64,000 nucleotides of DNA, taken from positions 55,158-119,157 of the forward strand of contig METE01000001.1 of assembly GCA_001771275.1 (NCBI GenBank), in the 5' to 3' direction. Under the pieces are notes generated by a model. It saw nothing but the letters and a program-made list of their open reading frames with translations, searched no databases and had not been told where the DNA came from. The translations under genes were made by a program, and so were the position numbers. Origin of the DNA: a candidate division Kazan bacterium RIFCSPLOWO2_01_FULL_48_13 (GTDB lineage Bacteria > Patescibacteriota > Kazan-3B-28 > UBA10110). Below, piece by piece: positions 120 through 56,946 of the stretch (position 1 is the stretch's first letter; each line of letters begins with the position of its first letter).

Positions 120-1520
120 TTAATATGCTCCCTTGCACATAATCGCCACCCAGACGGTTTTAAATATCAGTTGGATGTCGAGCCATAACGACCAGTGCTC
201 GATGTAATACATATCTAACTTGAGGTACTCGTCAAACGAAGCGTCACTTCTCCCTGACACCTGCCACGGCCCAGTCATCCCCGGCTTAACCAGCAGTCGC
301 TTAAACTGCCGCTGATTGTACTGGGCAACTTCATCCGACAGCGGCGGCCGCGGCCCCACCAGGCTCATCTCCCCGTTTAGAACATTAAACAATTGCGGTA
401 ACTCGTCCAAACTGGTTCGGCGCATAAACCGGCCAAACCGAGTAACCCGAGGATCATCTTTAATTTTAAACAACAAGCCAGATCCTTCGTTCCGTGTTCG
501 CCTTAGCTCCTCCCGCAGCTGTTCCGCCTGCTCACCGCCATATCGGCCACCAGTTGAGAGATGAGTATACATCGATCGGAACTTGTAAAAGTTAAACTCT
601 TTGCCAAACTGCCCCGGCCGTTTCTGAATATACAAAGCGGGGCCAGGCGAACCCAGCCGCACTAAGATGGCAATCAGCCACATGATGGGGGCTAAAACAA
701 TTAGTCCCAACAAAGATAGAACAATATCAAAGGCGCGTTTAATAATCCTCCCCCAACCATCTAAGGGAGTTGGTCGCAGTTCGATCAACGGATGTCCCAT
801 TATTGTGTCGGTTGCCGCGTGAGCAGAATAGAGTTCGGCCAGGCTTGGCACATACCGGAATCGAATACCGTGCCGTTCGCAGAAATTAATTAACGCCAAG
901 TTGCGCTCTAAGGTCAGCCCCACCGCCACGATCACTTCATCGGTACTATGAGCCGGTACCAACTCATTTAGTCGCTCAATGTCTAACTCCCGTTCCGGCA
1001 GCAATCGAACCACCGATAGCTTTCGCAGATAAAACTGCCGCAGCTCCTCGCCAGCGCCGTTTTCGCCAATGATTAGTACTTGGTGCTGGATAACTTTTAG
1101 GCGCTTAAGCCACCGCTGTAATCCCAACAATGCTAACCGGCCGCACCAGACTAAAATAACGGCAAATCCCCAGGCGTAGGCAGCAATCAGGCGGGAGAAG
1201 AAGGCTTCTTTTAGGCCAAACAGGATAATGATAAATATCGCCAAGCTGACAGACACTCCCACGAATGTTCGATTCCAGATTTGTAAGGGGGTGTAATAAG
1301 ATCCGAGACTATACATCCCGGTAAAGGCAAAAATTGCCAGCCAGGCGATTGCCACCGCCAAGGTCAAGTTAAGATAACCCGAGAATGGCATCATATAACC
1401 AGGCTGCGGCGAGAACCAAGCCGCCTCCCTGGCCCAGTAAGCTAAAGAGAACGCCAATAGCACCATCAGAAAATCGATGGGTAGCTGAAGAAAAGTAAAT
1501 AAAAGTTGAAACCTTTTCAC
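120..1520 (-). CDS. Polyprenyl-phosphate sugar phosphotransferase (bacterial sugar transferase, WbaP/CpsE family)
   Basis: C-terminal region (VGPRPPL...[14 protein letters not shown]...[22 protein letters not shown]) matches the bacterial sugar-transferase (Bac_transf) domain. N-terminal TM helices. Start is probably GTG at 1520. Confidence 0.8.
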
Positions 1521-1744
1521 AGGTCAGAATTAATCCCGTTAGAGATCACCTAACGGCAACCCCGTTTCGAGCGGTGTAAATATTAACTTTATCAATAATA
1601 TCTCTATCTGTATCTCCTATAGTACTAAGTGTTACGATAGGTTGCCTATCTCTAACGGGATTAAGCGCTGTTTACATTATAGCCGAATGGTCATAACTAA
1701 AAAATCCCTCGCTACGAGAGATTTTTTAGGCTGTCTGCAAGCTA

Positions 1745-2458
1745 TAAGCCGAGTTCTGTCCCATCTCCAGTTCCTGGAACTGGGGATGGGGACGACTATC
1801 TATCTAGGCCTTATGTTGCCATAAGGCTCAAGCGTTGGGATCCCGGTCAGCCCGCCTTAACCCTCGGCGTTAGTAGCTGACATCAGGCCCACCCCAACTT
1901 GCACCGAATAGGGTTTACCGGGACACTTCGCTCACGCGGAGGCCTCGCGGGTAGCATACGGACACAAACTATCAGATTTAAACCTGATTTTCTGCGACAC
2001 TTAGGCTTTACCCCGCAACTTTTCACCTTTCCCCATCCCCAGTTTTGGACACAACCTCAAGAGAATTTTTTATTCTCTTGCGTATCTCCACGATTCCCGA
2101 TCCGTGGGATTTCAGCTTGGTTTCGCGAATCCGAGCATCATTTTGATCTACATGTAGTTCGGCATAAACCAGCCGTCAATCAGCATATTTATGCTTGGTG
2201 GATTGATTATTGCCCCTGCGATGCTCGGACAACCTGCGCTTGAGGTTGTTGGTCTCACCGGTATAATACTTTCCGGTAGATGGGTTGTATAGCATATAAA
2301 CCCAGTGCATAACCTCATTATAGATGTCCAAAACTGGAGATGGGTAGTATTGTCTCTGTGGCACTTTCCCTATCCATCTCCAGTTCCGAAAAACTGGGGA
2401 TGGACGGTTTCTGTTAGAAACTATCCGGGTTAATTTAAGGTGCTCGGACTTTCCTCCC
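1745..2458 (-). ncRNA. rnpB: Probable RNase P RNA (bacterial type A-like) with a large internal insertion
   Basis: Minus strand reads GGGAGGAAAGTCCGAGCACC (P4 5' strand) at 2455-2436 and TAACAGAAACC at about 2410. Further 3' it reads GGGGAAAGGTGAAAAGTTGCGGGGTAAAGCC (P10/11 region) and CGGTAAACCCTATTCGGTGCAAG. GCTTGAGCC...GGCCTAGATAGATAGTCGTCC[hairpin]GGACAGAACTCGGCTTATAG gives P15-P18 and the P4 3' strand. P4 shows covariation (CCGAG/CTCGG versus E. coli CCGGG/CCCGG). The gene is about 700 nt instead of about 380 because of roughly 350 nt inserted between the ACAGAAA element and P10. Confidence 0.5.
2176..2310 (-). pseudogene. GIY-YIG nuclease remnant (about 44 aa, C-terminally truncated) inside the rnpB insertion
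   Basis: The translation MHWVYMLYNPSTGKYYTGETNNLKRRLSEHRR carries the canonical GIY-YIG motif and then stops after about 44 aa. The upstream 50 aa of the 94-aa ORF-track entry is translated rnpB P4 sequence. Confidence 0.45.
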
Positions 2459-2640
2459 ATCCGTCAGCTGACGGACAGGCAGTCGTCCACTTACAAACAG
2501 CTCTGTTAGTATACGCCAAAATCCACGCCAATTCCAGCCCCTTGTCATCCTGGACCGACTGGCCAAGGGCCAAGTTCGGATTCAGGATCCAGGCCTGGAA
2601 TGACAGAATAAAGACGGGGAATATTATTGATTAAATTAGT
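2455..2640. repeat. Mosaic palindromic repeat modules (TCCGTCAGCTGACGGA hairpin; GTCATCCTGG...CAGGATCCAGGCCTGGAATGACA)
   Basis: The same modules recur at about 14.5 kb, 21.9 kb and 19.0 kb. Confidence 0.7.
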
Positions 2641-2661
2641 GTTTTATGCTATAATGAGAGT

Positions 2662-3303
2662 ATGGATGAACCAATCAAACCGTTTTTAATAGCAGTTGCC
2701 GGAGGCACAGGCTCCGGCAAAACTTATATCGCGCGAAAGCTGCAGGCGATCGACCCGGCCCGGATCTCAATAGTTTCCCACGATAACTACTACAAAGACC
2801 GCAGCTCAGTCCCCATTGGTGATCGGAAAAAACTAAACTACGACGAACCAGCCGCTTTGGATAACGATCTATTTATCGAACAGCTGAAACAGCTCAGAAA
2901 GGGCATCGGGGTAGATATGCCGCAGTATGATTTTTCTACTCATACTCGCAGACAAGATACTACCCCCTTCTCCCCCACGCCGATAATTATCATCGAAGGA
3001 ATTCTGATATTGGAGAATGCCGATATCCGCCACCTGTTCGATCTTAAAATATTTATCGATGTTGATGCAGATATTAGATTAGCCAGAAGGTTAGAGAGGG
3101 ATGTCGGCGAACGCGATAGAACTTTCCAAGAATCAATTAATCAATATTTGGTATCCGCTCAACCGATGTACGATCTGTATGTCGAACCGGGCAAAGACTT
3201 TGCGGACCTAATCGTGCAGAACAATGGGACAGAAGCCGAATTAGCCAATGCCATCGTAACCATCGAAGCCAGAGTTCGCGAAGTACTTGGCACTTGCCAA
3301 TAA
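2662..3303 (+). CDS. udk: Uridine kinase
   Basis: P-loop AVAGGTGSGKT, IIIIEGILIL, DVDADIRLARRLERD; uridine kinase/PRK family, 213 aa. Confidence 0.85.
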   Translation: MDEPIKPFLIAVAGGTGSGKTYIARKLQAIDPARISIVSHDNYYKDRSSVPIGDRKKLNYDEPAALDNDLFIEQLKQLRKGIGVDMPQYDFSTHTRRQDTTPFSPTPIIIIEGILILENADIRHLFDLKIFIDVDADIRLARRLERDVGERDRTFQESINQYLVSAQPMYDLYVEPGKDFADLIVQNNGTEAELANAIVTIEARVREVLGTCQ

Positions 3304-5342: not shown

Positions 5343-5515
5343 ATAAAGATACTTGTCCCGTTAGAAATCACTTATCGGGACAATCGCAATAAACCTAAGG
5401 TTAAATATAGACGCTAAGCAGATTTGGAAGAGACTTGTCCCGTTAGAAATCACTTATCGGGACAATCGCAATAAACCTAAGGTTGAATATAGACGCTAAG
5501 CAGATTTCTAACGGG
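5343..5515 (+). promoter_or_regulatory. Tandem duplicated ~84-nt leader element ending ...AGATTTCTAACGGG|ATG at the thrS start
   Basis: Two near-identical units: ACTTGTCCCGTTAGAAATCACTTATCGGGACAATCGCAATAAACCTAAGGTT(A/G)AATATAGACGCTAAGCAGATTT. Each contains the hairpin GTCCCG-N15-CGGGAC and the long-range inverted repeat CCCGTTAGAAATC/GATTTCTAACGGG. Confidence 0.6.
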
Positions 5516-7294
5516 ATGGCTAAAGTACAACGCACTAAGAAAACCGATAAGACAAGTGGACTCTCGACCATCCGACATTCGGCCAGTCACATCATGGCCG
5601 AGGCTATTCTTAATTTATATCCTGAGACCAAGTTGGGATTTGGCCCGGCCACCGAGGACGGTTTTTACTATGATTTTGATTTTAAGACGCCTATCACTGA
5701 CGAAGATCTAACTAAGATCGAAGCCGAGATGATCCAGCTGATCGGCCTTGGCCGCACCTTTGAGCGAAGTGAAAAAACTATTACCGAAGCCCTCAAGTGG
5801 GCCGATAAAAATAATCAATCATATAAGGCAGATCTAATTGGTCGGTTAAAAGAGAGGGGCGAAAAAAAAGTTTCTTTCTACACATCGGGTAAATTTACAG
5901 ATCTATGCGAAGGACCGCATATTAAATCGACTAAGGCGATCGGTGCTTTTAAGCTGCTAAGTTTAGCGGGCGCTTATTGGCATGGCAACGAAAAAAATCC
6001 CCAGCTAACTCGTATCTATGGTACCGCTTTTGCAACTCAAAAAGAATTAGACGAATACTTGGTACTGCTCGAAGAGTCCAAAAAAAGAGATCATCGTAAA
6101 TTAGGAAAGGAACTGGAGCTGTTTGCTTTTGATGATGATGTGGGACCCGGCCTGCCATTGTGGCTGCCCAAAGGCACCGTAATAGTCGAAGAACTGGAAA
6201 AATTGGCTAAAGTTACTGAATCCGCCAATAACTATCTGCGCGTGCGCACCCCGCACATCGCCAAGGAATCGATGTATAGGACATCCGGCCATCTGCCCTA
6301 TTACGAGGATACGATGTATCCGCCGATGGAGATGGAGGGCACCAAGTACTACCTTAAGGCGATGAACTGTCCGCATCACCATAAGATATTTGCGGCTATG
6401 CCCAGGAGCTACCGAGATCTGCCGCTGCGGTTGGCTGAATATGGCACCTGTTATCGCTACGAAAAATCGGGCGAGCTGATGGGTTTAATGCGCGTACGGA
6501 TGCTGTCGATGAACGATGCCCACATCTACTGTACTAAAGTGCAGTTCGCCGCCGAGTTTGAGGCGGTAAACCAGATGTATATAAAATATTTTAAATTGTT
6601 TGGCATCGATAAGTATGTGATGCGCTTCTCCACCCATGATCCAGAAAAATTGGGCCAGAAATATGTGGACGAGCCCAAGCTGTGGCAAGAGACCGAGGCA
6701 TTAGTGAGGAAGGTGCTCAAAGAATCTAAAATCCCGTATGTGGAGGTGCCTAACGAAGCCGCTTTTTACGGCCCCAAGATTGATGTGGAAGTCTGGAACA
6801 CCATCGGCCGCGAATTTACCCTGGCTACCAATCAGGTTGATTTTGCCCAGCCCCGCCGATTTGGCCTTACCTACACCAACGAAAAAGGCGAACCCGAAAT
6901 CCCCTTGTGTATCCACCGGGCGCCCCTGGGCACTCACGAGCGATTTATCGGATTCTTGATCGAACACTATGCTGGCGCGTTTCCATTTTGGTTGGCGCCG
7001 GTACAGGCGATGATCACTCCAATCAGCGACAAACAGAATAAATATGCAACCCAACTACTGCAACGATTAAAAACCGCTGGGGTAAGAGCGGAATTAGATG
7101 ATAGAAATGAATCGTTAGGTCGAAAAATTCGTGACGCAGAGGTCCAAAAAGTCCCGCTGGTATTAGTTATCGGTCCAAAAGAAGTTGAATCAAAATCGGT
7201 CACTCTACGCGACCGAGACAAAGGCGATTTGGGTAGTTTGCCGATCGAAGACGCTATCACACGCCTACAACAGGCGGCTGATCAGGTCCGTTGA
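5516..7294 (+). CDS. thrS: Threonine--tRNA ligase
   Basis: Class II aaRS with TGS/second-additional-domain N-terminus, HRKLGKELELF, YGTCYRYE and an anticodon-binding C-terminus. The ORF track starts at 5483, but its first 11 codons are the upstream repeat, so 5516 (MAKVQR...) is the likely start. Confidence 0.9.
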   Translation: MAKVQRTKKTDKTSGLSTIRHSASHIMAEAILNLYPETKLGFGPATEDGFYYDFDFKTPITDEDLTKIEAEMIQLIGLGRTFERSEKTITEALKWADKNNQSYKADLIGRLKERGEKKVSFYTSGKFTDLCEGPHIKSTKAIGAFKLLSLAGAYWHGNEKNPQLTRIYGTAFATQKELDEYLVLLEESKKRDHRKLGKELELFAFDDDVGPGLPLWLPKGTVIVEELEKLAKVTESANNYLRVRTPHIAKESMYRTSGHLPYYEDTMYPPMEMEGTKYYLKAMNCPHHHKIFAAMPRSYRDLPLRLAEYGTCYRYEKSGELMGLMRVRMLSMNDAHIYCTKVQFAAEFEAVNQMYIKYFKLFGIDKYVMRFSTHDPEKLGQKYVDEPKLWQETEALVRKVLKESKIPYVEVPNEAAFYGPKIDVEVWNTIGREFTLATNQVDFAQPRRFGLTYTNEKGEPEIPLCIHRAPLGTHERFIGFLIEHYAGAFPFWLAPVQAMITPISDKQNKYATQLLQRLKTAGVRAELDDRNESLGRKIRDAEVQKVPLVLVIGPKEVESKSVTLRDRDKGDLGSLPIEDAITRLQQAADQVR

Positions 7295-9099: not shown

Positions 9100-9860
9100 G
9101 CGCATTCTTTTGTCATCCTAAGGAACTCACCTATCGTCCTTCTGGCAAGTCCGATGCGTCGGACCGCTCCGCCAGCTGGCGGACAGAATCTTATAATTGA
9201 CGACGTTTACCCTGCGTCGTCATCCTCGCCTCGTCGGGGATCGTATACAAGATTCTGGAGTCGCTTCACTCCCCAGAATGACGACATGGAGATTGCGGAG
9301 CCTGTCCCGAGCGAAACGAGGGATCTCTGTCTTCTCGCAATGACAAAAAAGAAGTCATCCTGAAAACCCTCATGCCAATAAAAAATATCAAATATAAATA
9401 ACCCCCAACCGTCATCCTGAAAACACTTTACTGGGCCAAAGGCCCCCCTTTGGGGCCGTAGGCTATATAAAATACCCCCAACCGTCATCCTGAAAACACT
9501 TTACTGGGCCAAAGGCCCCCCTTTGGGGCCGTAGGCTATATAAAATAACCCCCAACCGTCATCCTGAAAACACTTTACTGGGCCAAAGGCCCCCCTTTGG
9601 GGCCGTAGGCCTATATAGATAACTTATTCAGGATCCAGGCCTGGATTCTCGGGTCAAGCCCGAGGATGACAAAAAATAGCCCGGGGATGACAAAGAAGTG
9701 GCCCAATGATACCCCTCGCACTGTCATCCTGAAAACACTTTACTGGGCCAAAGGCCCCCCTTTGGGGCCGTAGGCTTATATAGATAACTTATTCAGGATC
9801 CAGGCCTGGATTCCAGATCGAGTCTGGAATGACAAAATAGCAGCCTCAGAATGACAACAG
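9100..9860. repeat. Large mosaic repeat cluster including a 3x tandem ~70-bp unit (9401-9625)
   Basis: Unit CCCCCAACCGTCATCCTGAAAACACTTTACTGGGCCAAAGGCCCCCCTTTGGGGCCGTAGGCTATATAAAATA is repeated three times head-to-tail with no spacers. Region 9640-9800 is nearly identical to 29860-30060. Confidence 0.8.
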
Positions 9861-13446: not shown

Positions 13447-13846
13447 TCTGGCGAAAGATAATAAATTTATAAGTTAAGTAGTTGCAGACGGTAAAGATAA
13501 TCGCCGAGACTATTTTGGCTAAATTGTACTGCCACCAGTACGGCCAGCCGGGAAACTGGCCTATTAGCATCTGGGTGCCAAAATGAACCAACACATCATA
13601 AATAACTATCCAGATCAGGTTGACGGTAACAAACAGTGGCAACTGCCGAAGATGATTAGGTCGCTTATCGCCAAAGGTCCAGTATTTATGCCAGATGTAA
13701 CCATTAGTAATGGCCAGCGCTGCCGAAAGAGTGTTGGCTGGAATTAACTGCCAATGAAACACCTGCACCAACAAATTAAGCATCCCGATATCGATCGCAG
13801 CGTTGCTGGTTCCGACTATCGAATATCTAATTAACTGTTTGATCAT
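13433..13846 (-). CDS. GtrA-family membrane protein
   Basis: 137 aa, 4 TM; N-terminal IRYSIVGTSNAAIDIGMLNLL is typical of GtrA. Confidence 0.65.
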   Translation of the reverse strand: MIKQLIRYSIVGTSNAAIDIGMLNLLVQVFHWQLIPANTLSAALAITNGYIWHKYWTFGDKRPNHLRQLPLFVTVNLIWIVIYDVLVHFGTQMLIGQFPGWPYWWQYNLAKIVSAIIFTVCNYLTYKFIIFRQSDRT

Positions 13847-14766
13847 ATCTTTTTAGCCAAAATAAATACGCTACTGCCAAATGGCAGGCTGATATATCTA
13901 ATCAGCCACGCTTCTATCCAGCCTAAACCGATCAATAACCGGCTGATGGGATGGGGCGCAGCATTATACCCGGCTCCCCGGCCTAAACTTTTGGCCAGCA
14001 GCCGCTGGGCTACGAAGATCGGGAAGGTAAACATAAATACATACGAAGAAAATATCGGTTTAAATCCAGCTTGGGAAAGTTTAGCTGCTAACTTGCTTAA
14101 GGTATAGCGGCGCTGATGCAACAAGGCTTTATCATGCGGGCCATACAGCCACTGATACGCCGGTACGGAGATCGCCACACACCCACCAATGGTTAGAACA
14201 CGATGCCACTCTTTAAGCGCCGCTTCATCATCTAACAGATGTTCCAATACATCGAAAGCGGTGATCAGATCGATCGATTCATCCGGCCGAGGCAATTGCA
14301 GAGCATCGCCCTGTTCCGCTTCCCCGTGCTGCTTGGCCGAAACCAGCGCCACCTCGCTTTGATCAATGCCAGTAACCTTTCCCCACCGCCGCAAGAACTC
14401 TAAATTAAAACCCCCGCCGCACCCCACATCCAATATCTCCATTCCTTTTGTTGAAGCGTCATTGCGAGTAATCTCCCCCCATTTTGTCATTCCAGACTCG
14501 ATCTGGAATCCAGGCCTGGATCCTGAATCCGAACTTGGCCCTTGGCCAGTCGGTCCAGGATGACACATCAAGTCGTTATTCTGGGTAGGCCGTTCTCCAT
14601 CGTCATTCTGGGGAGTCCGTCGGCTGACGGACGACTCCAGAATCTTAGGATTATCAGATTCTAATAGCCACTTGTCTAATATCGAACGCCAGACCAGCCT
14701 CCGGCAGATATGCCACCAGTAAAACTGCTCCTGTTCGCCCATTTCGGCTACATCGCTTTCTTGCAT
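13843..14766 (-). CDS. Class I SAM-dependent methyltransferase (N-terminal region contains translated repeat element)
   Basis: ILDVGCGGGFNLEFL, ITAFDVLEHL. Residues ...MCHPGPTGQGPSSDSGSRPGFQIESGMTK... are encoded by the palindromic repeat at 14441-14700, so the true start may be a downstream Met such as MEILDVG. Confidence 0.55.
   Translation of the reverse strand: MQESDVAEMGEQEQFYWWHICRRLVWRSILDKWLLESDNPKILESSVSRRTPQNDDGERPTQNNDLMCHPGPTGQGPSSDSGSRPGFQIESGMTKWGEITRNDASTKGMEILDVGCGGGFNLEFLRRWGKVTGIDQSEVALVSAKQHGEAEQGDALQLPRPDESIDLITAFDVLEHLLDDEAALKEWHRVLTIGGCVAISVPAYQWLYGPHDKALLHQRRYTLSKLAAKLSQAGFKPIFSSYVFMFTFPIFVAQRLLAKSLGRGAGYNAAPHPISRLLIGLGWIEAWLIRYISLPFGSSVFILAKKI
14441..14700. repeat. 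Palindromic repeat modules lying in-frame in the 5' part of the methyltransferase ORF
   Basis: GTCATTCCAGACTCGATCTGGAATCCAGGCCTGGATCCTGAATCCGAACTTGGCCCTTGGCCAGTCGGTCCAGGATGACA followed by GTCATTCTGGGGAGTCCGTCGGCTGACGGACGACTCCAGAATC. Confidence 0.75.
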
Positions 14767-14929
14767 ACCCCTATTCTACCCTGATAGTAGAAATTGTCAT
14801 GGCTTCGCCCCTCCCTCGTCATTCTGGTAAGTCCGTCAGCTGACGGACGCATCCAGAATCTCAGGATTAATAAGATCCTGGACAAGCCAGGATGACGAGA
14901 GGGGGTTCAAGAGAGGTTTGAATTATAGG

Positions 14930-17418: not shown

Positions 17419-18963
17419 TTGCTCGGATCATATTGCTATACTAAAACTATGGTGCGAATTGGGCAGATTGGTCAGCGAATAAAAAAATGGTGGAAAATTA
17501 CTGATCCAGTTAATTGGTTGCTTTTGGTGGTGGCGGTGGGGTTCTGTGCCTATCCGTTAACTGACCCTGACTTCGGTTGGCAGTTACGCTCAGGTCTGGA
17601 TTTGCTAAAAACTCATCAATTACCCCAGTTTGACCCCTATTCTCACACTCTGCCCAACTGGCATTGGGTTAATTTAGAGTGGTTGAGTGAAGGAACGATA
17701 GCATTTATTTACCAGCATTTAGGGGCAGCATCGCTAATCTTTGCTTTTGCGCTAATGGCCGTCGCTATGTTAATAATTGCGGCATCGTGGTCAACAGGAG
17801 TTAGCCTAAAAGCCAAATTAGCAGTTGCTGTCTTGGCAGTTCTGGCCAATGTGGGGCGTTGGGGTGTACGGCTACAACTTATTACCCAACTGGGATTAGC
17901 AATCGTGCTGTGGTTATTTTCTCGCTATCGAATCGGCGCTATTAAGCATCTGTGGTGGTATATTCCGCTATTTTGGCTGTGGGCTAATCTCCATGGCGGG
18001 TTTTTTAGCGGGTTAGCAGTCTTAGGGTTGCTCTGGGTAGTAGAAGGGATTAAATGGCTCAATCGGCCTCGCCATCGTCACACTGTTTCATCAAGGATAA
18101 CCGAGCCCACCCTGCAACTGCCACAGCTAAGGCATTTGATGGTCGTTGGCTTATTGTCGGGCGCGGCGACCTTGATTAATCCATATGGCTGGCGGATATA
18201 TGAGGATATTTACCGGCTATTCTCTACCTCTTTCGTGTTGAAAGCCATCGCGGAGTGGAAACCGTTCTCGATCAGCGAATCCGGCAACTATTTTCTGTGG
18301 CTTTACTTTTGCTTGCTGATCATCGCTATGATATTTACCTACCGCAAAGTTGAACCTACTCGCTGGGTAGTGACCATATTTTTCTTTATTATGATGATTA
18401 CTGCCAACCGCAACTTGGCGTTATTCCTACTGATCAGCTCTGGATTTTTTGCCGAGGCGATCAACGGGCCGATGAAGTGGCTGACCTACCGTCTAATCCG
18501 ACTGCGGTGGTTGGCTGTCGCCATTACTGTTGGTGGATTCTATTGGGTAACCCCCAGCATACTGCGGTTTACTGAGACGGCGGATGATATTAAAACCATT
18601 TCCCAGATCGGACGCTACCCTCTATCTGCCATCGAGTGGGCTAAGGCCCACCCAGACCAGATTGGAGACCGGCTGTTCAATATGTACGGCCAGGGCGGGT
18701 TTTTGCTGTGGCAACTGCCAGAGAAAAAGATCTTTATTGATGGGCGGATGTCGTATTGGCAGATAGATAATCGGTGGGTTTTTCGAGATAGCATTGCAAT
18801 TAATGGAGCCTACCCCGGCGCGGTGCAGATGATGGAGGAAAAATATCAGGTCGACTGGGTGTTAGTTGACCCGCGAATAAAGTTGGCACTGGAACTGAGC
18901 CAACGACCCGACTGGCAGTTGGTCTATCAAGATTCGTTGGCGGTTATTTATACCAAAAAATAA
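17419..18963 (+). CDS. Polytopic membrane protein, 'DPDFGWQLRSG' family (putative GT-C-like), paralog of 21029 and 43514
   Basis: 514 aa; about 10 TM plus a C-terminal domain with FNMYGQGGFLLWQLPEKKIFIDGRM, conserved in all three paralogs. Confidence 0.55.
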   Translation: MLGSYCYTKTMVRIGQIGQRIKKWWKITDPVNWLLLVVAVGFCAYPLTDPDFGWQLRSGLDLLKTHQLPQFDPYSHTLPNWHWVNLEWLSEGTIAFIYQHLGAASLIFAFALMAVAMLIIAASWSTGVSLKAKLAVAVLAVLANVGRWGVRLQLITQLGLAIVLWLFSRYRIGAIKHLWWYIPLFWLWANLHGGFFSGLAVLGLLWVVEGIKWLNRPRHRHTVSSRITEPTLQLPQLRHLMVVGLLSGAATLINPYGWRIYEDIYRLFSTSFVLKAIAEWKPFSISESGNYFLWLYFCLLIIAMIFTYRKVEPTRWVVTIFFFIMMITANRNLALFLLISSGFFAEAINGPMKWLTYRLIRLRWLAVAITVGGFYWVTPSILRFTETADDIKTISQIGRYPLSAIEWAKAHPDQIGDRLFNMYGQGGFLLWQLPEKKIFIDGRMSYWQIDNRWVFRDSIAINGAYPGAVQMMEEKYQVDWVLVDPRIKLALELSQRPDWQLVYQDSLAVIYTKK

Positions 18964-18965: not shown

Positions 18966-19320
18966 CCACCCGCGCCAATAAAAAATATCAAATATAAAAT
19001 AAAAAATCACCCCCTTTTTGTCATTCCCGAGCCGAGTGCCGTAGGCAACTCGACATCGGGAATCCAGGCCTGGATCCTGAATCCGAACTTGGCCTTTGGC
19101 CAGTCGGTCCAGGATGACACCTCTTTTGTTATTCCTGTCCACTTCGTCATTCTGGGGAGTCCGTCGGCTGACGGACGACTCCAGAATCTTGTATACGATC
19201 CCCGACGAGGCGAGGATGACGACGCAGGGTAAACGTCGTCAATTATAAGATTCTGGGCGCATTTGCCATGGGCAAATTTGCCGGAATGACGGAAGGTGAG
19301 TCGGGCAGGATGACAGCAGG
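18966..19320. repeat. Mosaic palindromic repeat cluster
   Basis: CATGCCAATAAAAAATATCAAATATAAA module; GTCATTCCCGAG...GGAATCCAGGCCTGGATCCTGAATCCGAACTTGGCC...CCAGGATGACA; GTCATTCTGGGGAGTCCGTCGGCTGACGGACGACTCCAGAATC; GGGTAAACGTCGTCAATTATAAGATTCTGG. Confidence 0.75.
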
Positions 19321-19329: not shown

Positions 19330-20982
19330 TTACTTACTGCGTTTCTTTTTGTTGGATTTTGGCTTAGCTACCGATTTGGTTGATGGAGCAGCCTTTTTAG
19401 TCACCCGTTTAGGTTTAACGGTTGTCTTATGCGCAATTGGCACTAATATCTCTTGGCCAGCCCGCAAGCGATATGGCGGCCGAAGATTATTTAACCGAAC
19501 AATTTCTTGAATGCTAATACCAGCAAACTCGGAAATATCGTAGATGGTGTCACCCTTTTCGGCCACCAACGCCTCCATTGCCACCGTCGGCACTCCCCCT
19601 TTCGTCATTCTGGGGAGTGAAGCGACTCCAGAATCTTGAGATTCTGGATGCGGTCCGATGAGTCGGACCTTACCAGAATGACGAGCGGTGGAGACAACAC
19701 CCATGTTACGGCGGCGGAAGCGAATCTTACCCAACAACGCACCAACAAACTTCAAATCGGTTAGCCATACCTTGCGCTGTTCGGCCTTATAGTAAGCGTT
19801 CCAGTCATCACCCATTGTCAGACGCTCACCCCTACTCATCTGGCCTTGGGGAATTAATAACACATCATCCACATTTAATTCGTACGGCCAGCGAAGCAGA
19901 TTAAACTTAGCTAACTTTTTAGGATGCACGCCATAAAGCTGGGCTACCGACATTAGCGTTTCGCCCTTTTTAACTTTATGTTTTTTGGTGCGGGTATTTA
20001 ACCTGCTTTGGATTAACAACCACAACCAGAGATTACGAATTAACAGCAACAGAATAATCCCGCCGATAAACCATAGAATCTTAATCCACTGAATTATCCA
20101 AAACACATATCGCACATCGATGTACTCATCCTTAACATATTCACCTTTAAAATCCTTTTCACCGTAGTGCAGCCGGAAATCCGCCACAAATCGGCCAAAG
20201 GCTGGCGGGTTTTTCTGCCAGGGCAGCTGAGCGGTAATTTCAGATCCCCTCAGCAACATTCCGATCTCTGCACCACTCTGCGACCCTACCTTGCCAAACA
20301 ATCCTCGCAAAGTTACATCGGCAATAGCATTAAGTTGCACATTGCCGTTATTCTTTAACCGAAGAAAGAAATAGAGTAGGCCGTTGCCAATAGAGTGCCT
20401 GATCTGCTTAACCTCCAACCGCCTTTGGATCTCACCCGGTACTGTTAAATACATCCGCGCCGCTATCCGAGTTACGACTGTCAACTGGCTGCTATTCTTT
20501 TTCTTAGCTCCCAAGGTGCTCGCCTCAGCCGGTTTTTCCAAAACGACTATCCCACCAGGGTGACTACCAACATCAGCATTGTCCGGTACTGTTACTGTAA
20601 AATTCAGAATTTGATTAGATTTAGGTGGTAGAGTCACTTCTGTTTTCTCCAACTCTACCCAAGTGCCAATGTCCTTGTTATCGGCCATGCTACCGATTAA
20701 GGTATAGCCGCCATTTTGAGACACTGCGCCATCTAAGGCCGCTACTATTAAATTAACGGACTTGTTGCCCCGATTTATTACATTGACCCGATCTTTAATT
20801 ACGGTCTTGGCTTCAGCCTCATAAACAAACCAGGACCGATTGGCCGGATAATCTTTGGTGGCTGCCGGCATTACGCCGATACCTCCAGTTTCAACCGCAT
20901 AAGCCATTGGTTGGCCGGACAACAAAAATACCGCTACCAATAGCAGCCAAACAACTACAAAAAGGATTTTTGTTTTTTTCAT
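19330..20982 (-). CDS. DUF916/DUF3324-like (CscA-like) surface protein with TM segment, two LysM domains and a Lys-rich tail; an in-frame repeat insertion lies between the LysM domains
   Basis: Signal peptide; NRSWFVYEAEAKTV...DIGTWVELEKTEVTLPPKSNQILNFTVTVPDNADVGSHPGGIVVLE (DUF916-like); TM FWIIQWIKILWFIGGIILLLLI; LysM 1 HKVKKGETLMSVAQLYGV...LLIPQ; LysM 2 VAEKGDTIYDISEFAGISIQEIVRLNNL...ILVP. Residues RLIGPHPESQDSGVASLPRMTKGG are encoded by the repeat at 19603-19685. Confidence 0.6.
   Translation of the reverse strand: MKKTKILFVVVWLLLVAVFLLSGQPMAYAVETGGIGVMPAATKDYPANRSWFVYEAEAKTVIKDRVNVINRGNKSVNLIVAALDGAVSQNGGYTLIGSMADNKDIGTWVELEKTEVTLPPKSNQILNFTVTVPDNADVGSHPGGIVVLEKPAEASTLGAKKKNSSQLTVVTRIAARMYLTVPGEIQRRLEVKQIRHSIGNGLLYFFLRLKNNGNVQLNAIADVTLRGLFGKVGSQSGAEIGMLLRGSEITAQLPWQKNPPAFGRFVADFRLHYGEKDFKGEYVKDEYIDVRYVFWIIQWIKILWFIGGIILLLLIRNLWLWLLIQSRLNTRTKKHKVKKGETLMSVAQLYGVHPKKLAKFNLLRWPYELNVDDVLLIPQGQMSRGERLTMGDDWNAYYKAEQRKVWLTDLKFVGALLGKIRFRRRNMGVVSTARHSGKVRLIGPHPESQDSGVASLPRMTKGGVPTVAMEALVAEKGDTIYDISEFAGISIQEIVRLNNLRPPYRLRAGQEILVPIAHKTTVKPKRVTKKAAPSTKSVAKPKSNKKKRSK
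19603..19685. repeat. Palindromic repeat element inserted in-frame inside the CDS 19330..20982
   Basis: CGTCATTCTGGGGAGTGAAGCGACTCCAGAATCTTGAGATTCTGGATGCGGTCCGATGAGTCGGACCTTACCAGAATGACGAG. Confidence 0.75.
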
Positions 20983-21028: not shown

Positions 21029-22642
21029 TTAGTTAAGCTTAGTTGTGAGAACTCGACCAAATAGCCAGCAATTATTGTCTTGATATAGTGCTTCCCAGCC
21101 ATCGGAGTTACGCAGAAAATACTGCGCAAATTGACTTTGTTTTTTAATCAAGATTAAATCGGCCTTATATTTATTTAAGATGGCTGTGGTCGGCTCATCC
21201 TCTACCGATAACGAGGTGTACTCCTTGAATAGATTTTGAGTGGGAGTCTGCCAGATTGCCATCCGCCCATCAATAAATACCGGTTTTTCGGGCAGCTGCC
21301 AGATTAGATAACCACCCCAGCCATACTCGTTAAACAAGTTACCAGGCAGGTGATGCTCTTTTATATACTGCACTGCGCCCACTGGATAGCCGGCGGCCCT
21401 GAACAATGATTCTTGATTGGTCGATAGGGGCACCACGCTGAGAGATTGAACATAACCGTAGTATCCCACCCCAATCAATAAGGCAAATCCTATCCAGACC
21501 GATCGAGTATAGTAGCTAATGCCGGCTGGTAGCAATACGGCAACGGCATCGGCTAAGAGTGGTAAAGTAACTAATGGGAATAACGGCATATTTCGCCAGC
21601 TGCTGATAGAAATTACAAAAAATACTATCCCAATAAATATTTTAGTGCCATCCATTTTACGCCAACTCATCAGCACAAATATCGCTAACAAGATTGCATA
21701 GATCAGTAGATTAAAGCCATTAACGCTGCCTAAATCCACCGGTAGCCATTCCGAGATATTAGATTTAACTAAATCGTTAAAGACCGTTCTAACAAATTCC
21801 TCATACACTCGCCAAGTGTATGGATTAACCAGAGTCACCGCACCCGACAACAGACCCACCCAGACTAACTGCCACAACTCTTTAGCCGATAGAAATCCAG
21901 CTCCTTTTGTCATTCCAGACTCGATCTGGAATCCAGGCCTGGATCCTGAATCCGAACTTGGCCCTTGGCCAGTCGATCCAGGATGACAGTTTTGTAATTT
22001 AGGATGACGCCCAGACCGCTTCCATATATACTTAGCCAACTCAAACACTCCAAACGCGCCCATTAAAATTAGCCCAGCCATAAATCCACCATGCAGATTT
22101 ACCCAGATCAGCATCAAGGGGATCAGCCAAAATATTAATTTGTTTTCTGGCTTTTCTCGCCATCGAAATAGAATCCACAAGATAGCCGCCAACCCTAATA
22201 ATGTAATCAGCTGAGGCCGGACTCCCACGATTGGGTAAGCTACTAATATGGCAATCAGTGTGGTCAACACGGTCGCTGGCCAACTAACCCGGGATACCCG
22301 AGAGGCCAATAGATAGGCGGCGACGGCGATCAAGGCAAATAAAACTACTAAAAATAATAGGCCCCAATAATGTGACCCAAGATATAGTAGCACATCAGTT
22401 AGCCACTCGTGCGATATCCACGGATAGCCCGGCATAGTATACGAGTAGCTGTCGCCCCGCGGGACTCCAAATTTTAAGATATCTTCCCCGTTTCTAAGAT
22501 GCCAGCCCAAATCCGGATCACGAGGTGAACGCAAGGTTAATAAAAAAGCCAATGTTAAAGTGAGTGCTATAAACGATCGATCACGCAGAATCGCCACTTT
22601 TGACGAGAATCTATTCATTGCCTGTATTAATAAATTTAACAT
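21029..22642 (-). CDS. Polytopic membrane protein, 'DPDLGWHLRNG' family (putative GT-C-like), with in-frame repeat insertion
   Basis: 537 aa; paralog of 17419 and 43514 (conserved FNEYGWGGYLIWQLPEKPVFIDGRM). The segment ...LQNCHPGSTGQGPSSDSGSRPGFQIESGMTKGAGF... is absent from the paralogs and is encoded by the repeat at 21908-22010. Confidence 0.55.
   Translation of the reverse strand: MLNLLIQAMNRFSSKVAILRDRSFIALTLTLAFLLTLRSPRDPDLGWHLRNGEDILKFGVPRGDSYSYTMPGYPWISHEWLTDVLLYLGSHYWGLLFLVVLFALIAVAAYLLASRVSRVSWPATVLTTLIAILVAYPIVGVRPQLITLLGLAAILWILFRWREKPENKLIFWLIPLMLIWVNLHGGFMAGLILMGAFGVFELAKYIWKRSGRHPKLQNCHPGSTGQGPSSDSGSRPGFQIESGMTKGAGFLSAKELWQLVWVGLLSGAVTLVNPYTWRVYEEFVRTVFNDLVKSNISEWLPVDLGSVNGFNLLIYAILLAIFVLMSWRKMDGTKIFIGIVFFVISISSWRNMPLFPLVTLPLLADAVAVLLPAGISYYTRSVWIGFALLIGVGYYGYVQSLSVVPLSTNQESLFRAAGYPVGAVQYIKEHHLPGNLFNEYGWGGYLIWQLPEKPVFIDGRMAIWQTPTQNLFKEYTSLSVEDEPTTAILNKYKADLILIKKQSQFAQYFLRNSDGWEALYQDNNCWLFGRVLTTKLN
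21908..22010. repeat. Palindromic repeat element inserted in-frame inside the CDS 21029..22642
   Basis: GTCATTCCAGACTCGATCTGGAATCCAGGCCTGGATCCTGAATCCGAACTTGGCCCTTGGCCAGTCGATCCAGGATGACAG...AGGATGACG; same module as 14468-14570. Confidence 0.8.
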
Positions 22643-25428: not shown

Positions 25429-25503
25429 CGGGGCGTAGCGCAGTGGTAGCGCGCCGCGTTTGGGACGCGGAGGTCGCAGGTTCGACTCCTGTCGCCCCGA
25501 CCA
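25429..25503 (+). tRNA. tRNA-Pro (anticodon TGG)
   Basis: Hand fold: acceptor CGGGGCG/CGCCCCG, anticodon stem CCGCG/CGCGG with loop TTTGGGA, T-arm GCAGG-TTCGACT-CCTGT, encoded CCA. Confidence 0.85.
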
Positions 25504-25589: not shown

Positions 25590-25660
25590 CCCCTCCACTT
25601 CATTCCGTCATTCTGGCAAATCCGTCAGCTGACGGATGCGTCCAGAATCTTTACAATGAA
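25590..25660. repeat. Palindromic repeat module (GTCATTCTGGCAAATCCGTCAGCTGACGGATGCGTCCAGAATC) immediately upstream of the GIY-YIG gene
   Basis: Same hairpin module as at 14800-14850, 19140-19190 and 26090-26140. Confidence 0.75.
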
Positions 25661-25663
25661 CTC

Positions 25664-25975
25664 ATGATTAAGGGAGGGTTTGTTTATATTATGGGGAGTT
25701 ATAAATTAACTCTGTACACAGGGGTAACCAATAATTTAATTCGTAGGGTATACGAACATAAATACAGCTTGGTTCCTGGATTTACAGCTAAATACAAATG
25801 CCACAATTTACTTTATTACGAGACCTCTGATTTTATAGAGCCTGCTATTATTCGAGAAAAGCAAATTAAGGATTTAAATCGAATCGATAAGATTAAACTA
25901 ATTAAAACCATCAACCCCAACTTAGAGGATTTGTACTCACAGATTCTGGGCGCGTCTGCTGACTTGCCAGAATGA
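25664..25975 (+). CDS. GIY-YIG nuclease family protein (small, YhbQ/COG2827-like)
   Basis: FVYIMGSYKLTLYTGVTNNLIRRVYEHK...LLYYE...AIIREKQIK; start taken at Met69 of the ORF-track entry. The stop codon lies inside a 60-bp unit that is tandemly duplicated downstream. Confidence 0.75.
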   Translation: MIKGGFVYIMGSYKLTLYTGVTNNLIRRVYEHKYSLVPGFTAKYKCHNLLYYETSDFIEPAIIREKQIKDLNRIDKIKLIKTINPNLEDLYSQILGASADLPE

Positions 25976-26420
25976 CGATATTAAGAGGATTTGTACTCAC
26001 AGATTCTGGGCGCGTCTGCTGACTTGCCAGAATGACGATAGAGAAATTCGGAATAATAAGACGGCGACTCAGAACGAAAAAATAAACCGTCATTCTGGTA
26101 AGTCCGTCAGCTGACGGACGCATCCAGAATCTTATATACAATTCTGGACAACTTAGAATGACGAGGAGGGTAGGATGACGATATTAAGAGGATTTGTATT
26201 CACAGATTCTGGGCGCGTCTGCTGACTTGCCAGAATGACGATGAAGAAAGATTCTGGATCACCGCTTTCGCGGGGATGACGATGAGAAGTAAACGGCGTC
26301 AATTATACGATCCTGGACGAAGCCAGGATGACGCCACAAGGTAAACGGCGTCAATTATACGATCCTGGACGAAGCCAGGATGACGCCACAAGGTAAACGG
26401 CGTCAATTATCACCTGTGAG
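25921..26420. repeat. Tandem and mosaic repeat array downstream of the GIY-YIG gene
   Basis: 60-bp unit TTAAGAGGATTTGTACTCACAGATTCTGGGCGCGTCTGCTGACTTGCCAGAATGACGATA x2 (25921-26040), with a third copy at about 26183. 54-bp unit GTAAACGGCGTCAATTATACGATCCTGGACGAAGCCAGGATGACGCCACAAG x2.4 (26289-26420). TCCGTCAGCTGACGGA hairpin at 26100. Confidence 0.8.
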
Positions 26421-29439: not shown

Positions 29440-29551
29440 CTTTATTCTTGTCATCTATAGCATTCCCCCTCACTGTCATCCTGAGAGTTACCCCTGCTGT
29501 CATCCCAGAGCCGGAGGCGATAGCCATCCGACATCTGGGATCCAGGCGAAA
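29440..29551. repeat. Repeat modules upstream of GIY-YIG gene
   Basis: CTGTCATCCTGAGAGTTACCCCTGCTGTCATCCCAGAGCC...GGGATCCAGG. Confidence 0.6.
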
Positions 29552-29902
29552 ATGAAACAGTACTATGTTTATATCCTTGCCAGTAATCGTAACGGAACCT
29601 TGTATGTCGGGGTAACCTCTGTGTTGATTAAAAGAGTCCACGAACACAAGACGGACATCACAGCAGGGTTCACCAAAGAACACCGCGTACATCGGTTAGT
29701 ATATTACGAAGTAACCAACGACATAGAATCGGCCATTGCCCGAGAAAAACAGCTGAAATCATGGAATAGAAAATGGAAAATCGACCTGATTGAAAATACT
29801 AATCCGCAGTGGGAAGATTTATACCCGAACATTATCGGTCAAGATAGTGGCCTGGATCCTCGGGTCAAGCCCGAGGATGACAAAAGAATAGCCCGAGGAT
29901 GA
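29552..29902 (+). CDS. GIY-YIG nuclease family protein (small, YhbQ/COG2827-like); C-terminus runs into repeat array
   Basis: YYVYILASNRNGTLYVGVTSVLIKRVHEHK...LVYYE...AIAREKQLK; the last ~15 codons and the stop are inside the GGATCCTCGGGTCAAGCCCGAGGATGACAAAA repeat. Confidence 0.7.
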   Translation: MKQYYVYILASNRNGTLYVGVTSVLIKRVHEHKTDITAGFTKEHRVHRLVYYEVTNDIESAIAREKQLKSWNRKWKIDLIENTNPQWEDLYPNIIGQDSGLDPRVKPEDDKRIARG

Positions 29903-43513: not shown

Positions 43514-45079
43514 GTGGTAAGCAAGAGAAAATCAAAGAAGCAATTAAGCAATTCTAAAATATCTAACTGGTGGCAACGCCTGATGAGTTCTATGACAGCG
43601 TTAGACCGATTGGGCCTGTTATTGTTGGTGGGGTTGGGATTGCGGCCAATATTAGACCCCGACTTTGGTTGGCATTTGCGTTCGGGGACTGATTTACTAA
43701 ACTATCTAGCTGTCCCCAGAACTGACCCATATTCTCATACCCTACCCGACTGGCCGTGGGTAAATCATGAGTGGTTAAGCGATGTAGTAGTGGCCTTTAC
43801 CCATAATCACTTAAGCTCACTGGTGGTGATTATACTCTTTACTATATTGATAACTACGATTTTTCTGTTGGCCGCCTCAGTCGAGCCAGTCGGTTGGCCC
43901 TATAAAATACTGGCTGCTGTAGTTGGGTTACTGGCAGCGCTACCGATACTGGGGGTGAGAATGCAGATGATCACTTTACTTGGGATGGCCTGGCTAATTT
44001 GGATTTTGTACCGACATCGGCGCGGGGACTTAAAAAATTTGTGGTGGCTACCAATTGCCTTTCTACTATGGGCCAACCTGCATGGTGGATTTGTCATCGG
44101 TTTGGTGATTTTGGTGGTTTGGTGGCTGTGCGAAGGGGCGAAGTATCTGATACTACACTGGCGGCCAGTGTGGTATTCCAAACTGCAGATTACCGAACTG
44201 GCATTGGATCGATCACAGTTAAGACATTTGTTTGGCATCAGTTGGCTGGCTGGTATCGCCACTCTGATAAACCCTTACGGTTGGGGCCTGTATGCCGATT
44301 TTTATAAGCTGTTTACCAATCCATTTGCTATTCAACACATTAGCGAGTGGCAACCGGTGTCGTTAGATAACGCCCTATCACTGAACTTCACTCTATATCT
44401 GATCCTGTTCGGGCTGGTACTACTAATGACCTACCGCAAGATTGAACCAACCCGCTGGATAATGTCCGGCTTGTTTTTGTATTTATCGCTGTTGTATTGG
44501 CGCAATATGCCGTTTTTTATGATAATCAGCGTCGGATTTTTAGCGGAGATTCTTCAGCAACATACCCATCTTATAATCAGATCCCTGAGCAAAAATAAAT
44601 GGGTCCTCACCGGTGCCGTAATAATAATTAGCATTATTATTGGCCAGAGAATTGATGATGTAGCGGGCAAGCTGATCAACCCAACAGCCAGTCTTCGCTC
44701 TGGCGGATATCCGATTGATGCCGTCCAGTGGGCAAAAGCCAACCCAGACAAAATTGGCAAGACAATGTTTAACGAATATGATTGGGGCGGATTTCTCATC
44801 TGGCAGTTCCCCGAACAAAAAGTCTTTGTAGACGGCCGAATGCCGTATTGGAAGACCAGCAATCGGTTTCCTTTTCTGGAAGAGCAATACGCTATATCCG
44901 CCCAATCAGGATCCATCGAAATGTTGGAAAATACATATGGGGTTGATTGGATAATGATCAGACCCGGGCGCCAGTTGGCGTTGGTTTTGTCGGGACAAAA
45001 AGATTGGAAATTAGTCTACCATGACACTATCGCAATGATTTATTATAGAATAGATGGTAGTGATAAAAATAACACCTAA
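43514..45079 (+). CDS. Polytopic membrane protein, 'DPDFGWHLRSG' family (putative GT-C-like)
   Basis: 521 aa; paralog of 17419 and 21029; FNEYDWGGFLIWQFPEQKVFVDGRM. Confidence 0.55.
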   Translation: MVSKRKSKKQLSNSKISNWWQRLMSSMTALDRLGLLLLVGLGLRPILDPDFGWHLRSGTDLLNYLAVPRTDPYSHTLPDWPWVNHEWLSDVVVAFTHNHLSSLVVIILFTILITTIFLLAASVEPVGWPYKILAAVVGLLAALPILGVRMQMITLLGMAWLIWILYRHRRGDLKNLWWLPIAFLLWANLHGGFVIGLVILVVWWLCEGAKYLILHWRPVWYSKLQITELALDRSQLRHLFGISWLAGIATLINPYGWGLYADFYKLFTNPFAIQHISEWQPVSLDNALSLNFTLYLILFGLVLLMTYRKIEPTRWIMSGLFLYLSLLYWRNMPFFMIISVGFLAEILQQHTHLIIRSLSKNKWVLTGAVIIISIIIGQRIDDVAGKLINPTASLRSGGYPIDAVQWAKANPDKIGKTMFNEYDWGGFLIWQFPEQKVFVDGRMPYWKTSNRFPFLEEQYAISAQSGSIEMLENTYGVDWIMIRPGRQLALVLSGQKDWKLVYHDTIAMIYYRIDGSDKNNT

Positions 45080-50829: not shown

Positions 50830-50960
50830 ATTGTCATCCTCAACCGAAGCGAAGCATACCACACATTGTCATCCTGAAAACACCTTACTGCCGTAGGCTA
50901 ATATAAATAACTTATTCAGGATCCAGGCCTGGATTCCGGATCAAGTCCGGAATGACAGAA
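50830..50960. repeat. Mosaic palindromic repeat cluster
   Basis: GTCATCCTCAACC...GTCATCCTGAAAACACCTTACTGCCGTAGGC...ATAACTTATTCAGGATCCAGGCCTGGATTCCGGATCAAGTCCGGAATGACAG. Confidence 0.7.
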
Positions 50961-56626: not shown

Positions 56627-56928
56627 CACGAACAAAATTATTTTGTGAGTGAACCCCGCACTTTATGCATTGCATGATAGTGCGCGGGTTACCACTAATT
56701 TCGTCATCTCAATTTTTCAATTGGGCGTGGACTATATCTTCCCCGAATGTTCTTCAATACATCGGAGGATGGCGTGTAGTCTCTACGGGGTCAAACCCAA
56801 AACCTGAATATAGTGAAGATTGTTTGGTTTGGGTCGACTTCCCACGGTATCACCATACTGCCCCACACGGACAGGTTAGGCTCCACCGTTACAGCCATCA
56901 GTTTAACGTCGGGCTTGTTTCTCGACTC
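56627..56928 (-). mobile_element. ORF-less group I intron 4 in 23S at CCTTGTCGGGT|AAGTTCCGACC (E. coli about 1931)
   Basis: 302 nt; begins GAGTCGAG and ends ...TGTTCGTG; contains GAAGATATAGTCC (S element) and CCCCGTAGAGACTACACGCC. Confidence 0.65.
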
Positions 56929-56946
56929 ACCCGACAAGGAATTTCG

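Follow-up and report, generated by a model that had tools for sequence, protein, structure and literature searches.

Three protein-coding genes in a stretch of the genome of the candidate division Kazan bacterium RIFCSPLOWO2_01_FULL_48_13 (64,000 nucleotides of contig METE01000001.1, positions 55,158 to 119,157; here called the window) contain, in frame, copies of the hairpin repeats that also fill the intergenic spacers. We consider it likely that these inserts are explained by inverted dimers of CGTC-tagged repetitive extragenic palindromes (REPs), of the same kind as NTS/SRM hairpins, that derive from cassettes of the nuclease gene ssn and have been selected where a gene tolerates them. Direct support comes from the anatomy of the repeat units, the nucleases' homology with the SsnA-locus protein of Neisseria, the restriction of the inserts to certain lineages, their placement in regions modelled as disordered and their turnover among relatives; Ssn cleavage would then drive the copying or exchange of the dimers, and the inserts would be translated.

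As a preliminary description of this DNA had proposed, spacer-type repeats lie within three open reading frames (ORFs). The LysM, membrane-protein and methyltransferase ORFs are all uninterrupted, the peptides quoted in that description were recovered in each, and spacer copies of the repeats were found. The host genes are as follows:

19330..20982, minus strand: host gene 1, 550 residues, with a WxLIP_PGBD-like domain, a transmembrane helix and two LysM domains (Pfam)
21029..22642, minus strand: host gene 2, 537 residues, a polytopic membrane protein with no Pfam match; paralogs at 17419..18963 and 43514..45079
13843..14766, minus strand: host gene 3, 307 residues, a class I S-adenosylmethionine-dependent methyltransferase (Methyltransf_11, Pfam)

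The core of each coding insert is an inverted, head-outward dimer that measures exactly 81 nucleotides, or 27 codons, from head to head. All three coding dimers begin at a codon boundary, are divisible by three in length and contain no stop codon in the host frame. The parts of the inserts are:

19603..19683, minus strand: LysM-gene dimer, CGTC-headed units at ~19603-19637 (plus) and 19638-19683 (minus), encoding RHSGKVRLIGPHPESQDSGVASLPRMT, residues 434-460
19595..19602, minus strand: extension CCCCCTTT beside one head of the LysM-gene dimer, encoding KGG of 'MTKGG'
21908..21988, minus strand: membrane-gene dimer (module B), TGTC-headed, CCA-tailed units, encoding CHPGSTGQGPSSDSGSRPGFQIESGMT, residues 219-245
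21896..22009, minus strand: full repeat-derived stretch of the membrane gene, 38 residues: the dimer plus a remnant of a solo head (CGTCATCCTAAA...) and the extension AAAGGAGCTGG
14485..14565, minus strand: methyltransferase dimer (module B), 99% identical to the membrane-gene copy, encoding CHPGPTGQGPSSDSGSRPGFQIESGMT, residues 68-94
14601..14646, plus strand: single CGTC-headed hairpin unit in the methyltransferase gene (family D6)
~14458..14661, minus strand: whole repeat-derived insert of the methyltransferase gene, ~68 residues, comprising the dimer, the single unit and degenerate remnants

These limits refine those given earlier for the LysM (19603-19685), membrane-protein (21908-22010) and methyltransferase (14441-14700) inserts. 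The earlier proposal that two of the inserts derive from one module also held: the two 81-nucleotide dimers of module B, in which GTCAT-hairpin-GATCCAGGC is joined to GCCTGGAT-hairpin-ATGAC, share a 64-nucleotide module whose only exact matches are at 14486-14549 and 21909-21972 (0 expected in shuffles). Peptides encoded around the inserts include LIGPHPESQDSGVASLPR and PGFQIESGMTK. In the methyltransferase, the insert separates the conserved N-terminal YWWH..R helix from motif I (ILDVGCG). AlphaFold models, built from alignments of database hits for the LysM protein and the methyltransferase, place both inserts in a predicted disordered linker or loop: residues 420-466 of the LysM protein are coil with a predicted local distance difference test score (pLDDT) of <50, between a long helix and LysM2, and residues 39-103 of the methyltransferase form an unstructured loop with a pLDDT of <50, the remainder of that model scoring >90.

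The repeat units share a common architecture, namely a [C/T]GTC head, a stem beginning with AT, a loop of either 5 nucleotides or 10-26 nucleotides with an inner hairpin, and a tail beginning with C. Stems are 7-11 base pairs long and all have AT...AT at their ends, and columns 5, 6, 24 and 25 of the unit alignment are invariant. A search for a head plus a hairpin returned 38 units in the window as opposed to 7.8 ± 3 in dinucleotide shuffles; the finder is loose (~8 matches per shuffle), and ~33 units were judged convincing, all of them headed by CGTC or TGTC. We relied on this finder because the published SRM regular expression, HGTCWYN(0-2)YYVSBRHN(0-5)WNVSBRGN(0-2)RNCYNB, recovers just 3 of the ~33 units (3 window matches vs 0.2 expected); the ATTCTGG and ATTCCAGA stem variants fall outside it. 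Two flavours can be told apart, TGTCAT...ATCCA and CGTCATTCTGG...CCAGAATCTT: the short TGTC units have a 5-nucleotide loop and a CCA tail, and the CGTC units have a CTT, CTC or CGT tail and many loops of 10-26 nucleotides. With 72 occurrences, the motifs GTCATYC and GRATGAC are enriched in the ~24% of the window outside long ORFs. Of the 33 convincing units, ~26 lie in spacers; the other ~7 (about 20%) lie inside genes, all in frame. No Rfam family covers the CGTC/TGTC repeats.

Units paired in opposite orientation were found at 14485-14565, 14817-14897, 19019-19119, 19603-19683 and 21908-21988, and the modules seen in the genes also recur in spacers at 2543-2599, 9791-9838, 19036-19119 and 50914-50964. 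Three spacer features illustrate the relation to the coding copies:

14811..14905: intergenic 81-nucleotide dimer (14817-14897) with the LysM-insert architecture and C-run and G-run extensions
19004..19315: spacer array between 18963 and 19330, made of the same units, with the module B copy 19036-19119
9112..9860: largest mosaic spacer array, containing the exact LysM-insert unit 9252-9282

One unit of the LysM insert is thus present as an identical spacer copy. The LysM insert (19595-19692) and the intergenic dimer (14811-14905) also fold alike as RNA, with free energies of -50.3 and -50.4 kcal/mol and z-scores of -7.0 and -7.2, respectively. The C-run of the LysM-gene extension is likewise found upstream of many spacer units and of the left hairpin in the ssn cassettes, and in the eight genic dimers examined, which are partly related by descent, it always lies 3' on the host coding strand, so that the peptide reads ...MTKG(G).

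The same hairpins bracket two nuclease genes in the window. Ssn, a family of GIY-YIG nucleases with a single domain, was described by Chenal et al. (2025, PMC11893778). The substrate is single-stranded DNA, which is cut in a sequence-specific manner beside NTS/SRM hairpins (CGTCATTCCCGCG...GCGGGAATC), just upstream of the hairpin. Such hairpins stand on both sides of the ssn gene, in an NTS-ssnA-NTS layout that the authors liken to an insertion sequence, and exist in addition as hundreds of orphan copies. The window holds two such cassettes:

25606..25977, plus strand: ssn cassette 1, with left hairpin 25606-25651 (plus), GIY-YIG gene 25664..25975 (103 residues) and right hairpin 25940-25977 (minus)
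29498..29902, plus strand: ssn cassette 2, with left hairpin 29498-29544 (plus), GIY-YIG gene 29552..29902 (116 residues) and right hairpin 29853-29882 (minus)

Each gene has a hairpin just upstream and an inverted hairpin at its stop codon, with a single flavour per gene. Cassette 1 has hairpins of the CGTCATTCTGG...CCAGAATC flavour on both sides, and GAATGAC of the right hairpin provides the stop codon; cassette 2 has TGTCAT...ATCCA hairpins on both sides, of which the right one, at the 3' flank of the gene, fits the published SRM search motif. A GTCATYC hairpin upstream together with GRATGAC at the stop was found at 10 of 10 GIY-YIG genes (2 in the window and 8 in related loci). Pfam GIY-YIG matches the two window nucleases with E = 2e-15 and 1.5e-8. 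The second is 56% and the first 42% identical over 90 residues to the sole homolog in N. gonorrhoeae, the SsnA-locus protein, which is a 94-residue ORF among 12 NTS copies in 1.47 kb. The core of the second has >7500 homologs at E <= 1e-8, at 65-70% identity and in several phyla. NCBIfam contains no family for either protein, and a search of the PDB with the nucleases gave just a weak UPF0213 match (1ZG2, E = 0.0026). Judged by these sequence comparisons, the window nucleases belong to the Ssn family and are predicted to cleave single-stranded DNA. The association of a GIY-YIG gene with such repeats, which we had considered as possibly new, was dropped as a claim, the pairing having been published by Chenal et al. 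(PMC11893778).

Several further observations concern the ssn loci of this group. The cassettes often adjoin tRNA genes (in the window, L006, L011 and L012), and in the window cassette 1 (25606-25977) lies ~100 nucleotides downstream of tRNA-Pro (25429-25503). In the distant Kazan-like genomes L017 and L012, hairpins nearly identical to Neisseria NTS (TGTCATTCCCGCGTAGGCGGGAATCCA) flank ssn genes; one ssn protein of these distant genomes ends in ...DSRLRGNDS, which is repeat read-through, and at L017:2326-2437 three heads and an inverted unit lie in frame inside a 667-residue ORF (889..2892).

Cassette 1 and its relatives in L006 and L011 have ends that match the LysM-type dimer. Because the bracket of the ssn gene is reproduced without the gene, the 81-nucleotide dimers look like ORF-less derivatives of the cassettes. 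This relation resembles that of a MITE, a miniature transposable element with inverted repeats, to its parent, except that the partner is a nuclease and not a transposase: no transposase domain was found in a screen limited to the genes of the cognate cassettes, which encode the GIY-YIG nuclease.

Aligning the host proteins with their orthologs and paralogs, as the preliminary description had suggested, revealed that all three inserts are lineage-specific. A scan of one genome per species yielded 15 syntenic loci in Kazan-like Patescibacteria. The membrane-protein insert is present only in the window and in the L005 ortholog; 11 further orthologs lack it, and so do the two window paralogs (17419 and 43514), as had been claimed for these paralogs. 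In the methyltransferase, 20 of 36 homologs lack the insert, being 236-250 residues long with nothing between the YWWH..R helix and motif I, and the remaining homologs carry different repeat-derived segments at the same junction. For the LysM protein, the orthologs in L010 and L013 have linkers of 19-20 residues without a repeat, and most closer relatives carry repeat peptides, for example RHPGPTGQ...SGMTKG, LGGRNDG and PLVRGGVGG.

The inserts have also turned over among these relatives. Between genomes the modules are 95-98% identical at places where the host proteins are 65-70% identical and the flanking coding DNA ~80% identical. Within the set of 10 distinct short units, changes are found on both sides in 4 of 8 stem pairs, with head and tail fixed; only this stem diversity is informative, because the set was chosen for perfect pairing. 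The coding copies of the window and L005 likewise differ as CCAGA/TCTGG and CCGGA/TCCGG, which alters the peptide and keeps the hairpin. At the LysM site, where the flanks can be aligned, a type A (CGTC) dimer is found in the window, P0004 and L007, and a type B (TGTC) dimer in P0002, P0003, L005 and L006. Since the window and P0002 (81% identity) and P0004 and P0007 (78%) each differ in dimer type, the types alternate inside two subclades and at least two swaps must have occurred. The membrane-protein insert has the same flanks in the window and L005 (CAAAAC|xGTCAT) and is missing in L006, the sister of L005 (80.6% identity), which therefore implies a clean loss or a re-insertion. At the protein level, P0190, 97% identical to the methyltransferase, contains an in-frame tandem duplication of 56 residues that includes the dimer. 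Contigs of the same species (99.9% identical) differ from the window almost solely in the repeat arrays.

Among these contigs, L001 has one extra 21-nucleotide half-unit (comparing window ~9646-9674 and ~25924-26040) and L004 has a rearranged 60-nucleotide unit beside the 3' end of the first ssn gene. In L002 and L004, obtained from separate samples (ENA, k = 141, and JGI), window position 19176 is followed directly by 9184, which corresponds to an inversion of a ~10-kb segment between 9179-9263 and 19176-19260, two repeat arrays in inverted orientation that are 98% complementary over 85 nucleotides. The alternative arrangement is found in L001, L003 and the window, and the difference looks like a repeat-mediated inversion polymorphism. 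In other relatives (L009:4445-6577, L012:14457-15809; P0208) repeat-encoded linkers join the methyltransferase to the downstream GtrA-family gene in a single ORF of 450-710 residues; in the window the two genes are separate and overlap by 4 nucleotides.

The fact that all genic copies are in frame calls for no special property of the repeats. We considered whether the dimers might be designed for translatability and rejected this, as only one of the six reading frames of the LysM dimer, and three of the six of module B, are open. To account for in-frame copies it is enough that harmless insertions survive.

Taken together, we favour the following sequence of events. The inserts are inverted dimers of small directional hairpins, and they fit the class that has been described both as CGTC-tagged REPs and as NTS/SRM, the recognition hairpins of Ssn. 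Two ssn paralogs are each bracketed, heads outward, by hairpins of their own flavour, and the 81-nucleotide dimers would be derivatives of these cassettes that have lost the ORF. Such dimers would spread through the spacers and accumulate there as mosaic arrays, and now and then one would enter a coding sequence; the genic copies that survive would be those that keep the frame, add no stop codon to it and are situated in a linker or loop that tolerates them, where they would be translated as an additional disordered peptide. A number of points weigh against this scenario. Neither the three coding sites nor a comparison with empty orthologous sites shows a target-site duplication, neither transposition nor cleavage was observed, and Chenal et al. 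report for Ssn a nuclease activity and a function in transformation, but no mobility (PMC11893778). Most units lie outside the strict published SRM regular expression, and the family placement of the nucleases, for which NCBIfam has no model, comes from Pfam and from identity to the Neisseria protein, not from CDD cd10448 (SsnA). Finally, the length bias of head-to-head units, with multiples of three in 14 of 18 genic vs 8 of 30 intergenic cases (Fisher p = 9e-4), comes from copies that are not independent.

The alternative that survives best is that the dimers are immobile, REP-like structures, such as terminators, mRNA stabilisers or recombination sites, which multiply only by slippage, duplication and gene conversion, the coding copies having come by conversion or recombination from the spacer arrays and Ssn having a separate role, for example in the control of transformation. 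The variation within the species, which consists of tandem-array copy number and an inversion across the 85-nucleotide inverted repeat, fits this explanation, and type swaps at one fixed site are what gene conversion primed on shared heads would produce; the phenotype that Chenal et al. demonstrate is, moreover, one of transformation (PMC11893778). However, conversion fails to explain the first arrival of a dimer at the membrane-protein loop or the methyltransferase junction because it requires a resident copy, and immobility sits poorly with the presence of the same module at unrelated loci in genomes that are 65% identical in protein and with the fact that the dimer copies the bracket of the ssn cassette. 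We judge an immobile origin unlikely. More improbable still is that the repeat peptides were recruited for a function, such as that of a flexible or charged linker in an envelope protein, and that selection acting on the protein maintains them. Such recruitment would be in keeping with the filling of the same linker or junction in many lineages, with host genes related to the envelope or to glycosylation, and with the single orientation (...MTKG) shared by the coding copies; yet the peptides vary freely among close relatives as the hairpins stay paired, many orthologs have no insert, the models predict disorder, and the same peptide occurs in unrelated proteins.

Repeats are well known for causing misassembly, and the sequences here come from metagenomes. 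Even so, artefacts of sequencing or assembly, or host ORFs that are pseudogenes still open by chance, are scarcely credible as explanations, as k = 141 exceeds the length of the 81-nucleotide dimers, the flanking parts of the proteins are conserved (including the methyltransferase YWWH..R helix) and every insert is a stop-free multiple of three. Assembly error, which the preliminary description had named as grounds for abandoning its proposal, is excluded for the LysM gene because contigs from four separate samples (ENA, JGI; k = 141) all encode the identical 550-residue protein; for the other two host genes, same-species contigs that are 99.9% identical show no difference at any insert.

Returning to ssn-derived dimers as the preferred explanation, a bolder version of it holds that in Kazan-group Patescibacteria copying initiated by Ssn inserts, excises or exchanges dimers at fixed genic sites. 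Cassettes would then be swapped by a nuclease, so that envelope proteins have their linkers remodelled and neighbouring genes are sometimes fused. This version is doubtful and we offer it tentatively; if it is true, CGTC REPs and in-frame elements of the RPE type (Rickettsia palindromic elements) would gain the enzyme that they have long lacked.

The repeats can be set against several known systems. CGTC-tagged REPs have a CGTC head (or the variants TGTC and CCTC), a stem of 8-9 base pairs that opens with an A-T and a T-A pair, a loop of 4-5 nucleotides and a short unpaired tail with the consensus CCA; they are numerous and mainly extragenic, with frequent inverted dimers, intragenic dimers encoding 20-30 residues; they were reported from 5 phyla, mostly from alpha-proteobacteria, with no dedicated transposase known (Di Nocera et al. 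2013, PMC3733652). The window units agree with these in their head and AT stem, in short units with an 8-base-pair stem, 5-nucleotide loop and CCA tail, and in frequent inverted dimers that are mostly intergenic and sometimes intragenic (27 residues here), with no associated gene for a REP-associated tyrosine transposase. They differ in their host, a member of the Patescibacteria (Kazan), in the many units with loops of 10-26 nucleotides that hold a second hairpin, in the CTT/CTC tail of one flavour, and in flanking a dedicated nuclease gene, an arrangement not found in PMC3733652. With the Ssn/NTS system (Chenal et al. 2025; Neisseria dRS3/NTS) the window shares single-domain GIY-YIG proteins of ~95-115 residues (42-56% identical), genes bracketed by directional hairpins of the form CGTCAT...ATC, and orphan hairpins, hundreds of them, that cluster in spacers. 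Whereas 2% of N. meningitidis NTS are intragenic (PMC11893778), ~7 of the 33 units are so here, all in frame; the window also has two paralogous nuclease/hairpin pairs, and its stems are ATTCTGG, ATTCCAGA and ATCCTCGGG as opposed to ATTCCCGCG.

The likeness to RPEs proposed in the preliminary description is borne out by palindromes that stand in frame in unrelated genes at fold-compatible positions, are lineage-specific, occupy linkers or loops and are also found in spacers, with the head and stem of CGTC REPs and, in the short TGTC units, their tail. The likeness is probably one of kind, beyond behaviour, because Di Nocera, De Gregorio and Rocco (2013, PMC3733652) placed RPE-4 and RPE-6 of R. 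conorii among the CGTC-tagged REPs. Unlike RPE-1, which is ~150 bp long (Ogata et al. 2000, as summarised in PMC10969869), the elements described here are 81-nucleotide dimers of hairpins of 25-45 nucleotides; they come from another phylum, and the sequence link to RPEs is that class assignment of RPE-4 and RPE-6. MITEs with in-frame fusions (ERIC/YPAL, Correia and Coxiella QMITE; PMC5896051, PMC2229807) are similarly small, non-coding elements with inverted ends that can be intragenic and add amino acids; in contrast to them, the window dimers are without target-site duplication, are paired with a GIY-YIG nuclease of single-stranded DNA and not with an insertion-sequence transposase, and are built of directional hairpins and not of simple terminal inverted repeats. 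The suggestion that the phenomenon was undescribed for this type of genome agrees with the literature searched. We found no report of RPE-type inserts, CGTC REPs or Ssn/SRM pairing in Patescibacteria, a group that the main text of Chenal et al. (2025) does not mention; the class itself and its intragenic dimers of 20-30 residues were, however, already known in other phyla.

In-frame palindromic inserts, CGTC REPs and Ssn/SRM pairing are thus each known, and here they are joined in Patescibacteria. Three literatures that have been treated apart, on RPE-type inserts, on CGTC REPs 'without a dedicated transposase' and on Ssn nucleases, meet in one very small Candidate Phyla Radiation (CPR) genome, where the high genic fraction, the two cognate pairs, the repeated occupancy and swapping of coding sites and the methyltransferase-GtrA fusion in relatives stand out. 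This raises the testable question of whether Ssn nucleases copy or exchange hairpin dimers, also within genes, for which the locus provides two nuclease/hairpin pairs, natural filled, empty and swapped coding alleles, and a near-identical strain with an in-frame duplication. For the annotation of CPR genomes it means that many apparently novel low-complexity segments (...RHPGPTGQ..SGMTKG..., ...LGGRNDG..., ...DSRLRGND...) are repeat read-through and not protein innovation.

Other repeats in the window and its relatives are unrelated to the CGTC units. A second palindromic family, of the CTCCCCTTACATAAGGGGAG type, is read through in frame in relatives (L021:~2120-2170, L012, L005:7898-7945 and L011), giving peptides such as TPPNLPLHKGRRG and PLVRGGVGG in orthologs of the LysM protein, the membrane protein and the methyltransferase. 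Two tandem copies (98% identical) of an 80-nucleotide unit with the hairpin GTCCCGTTAGAAATCACTTATCGGGAC lie at 5346-5507, upstream of ORF 5483..7294, and an inverted copy is found 46 kb away at 51256-51347; this unit has no Rfam match at gathering thresholds.

Insert-rich RNA genes are known for CPR bacteria, and insertions of introns and homing endonucleases are typical of their rRNA genes. The RNase P RNA match at 1729-2498 spans 770 nucleotides and must hold insertions of ~400 nucleotides, because the model has 367 positions. A palindromic repeat (TCCATCTCCAGTTCC...GGAACTGGGGATGGA) occurs within this span at 1760 and 2373 and again at 57751 inside the 23S rRNA gene (56029-59988), which spans 3960 nucleotides vs a model of 2925 positions and contains ORFs 56665..56973 and 57010..57591. 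The rRNA region is flanked by inverted repeats of 25-53 nucleotides (52876-53144 vs 60007-60752), and three tandem paralogous ORFs with a shared 45-nucleotide repeat lie between the 5S and 23S genes (53488-55241).

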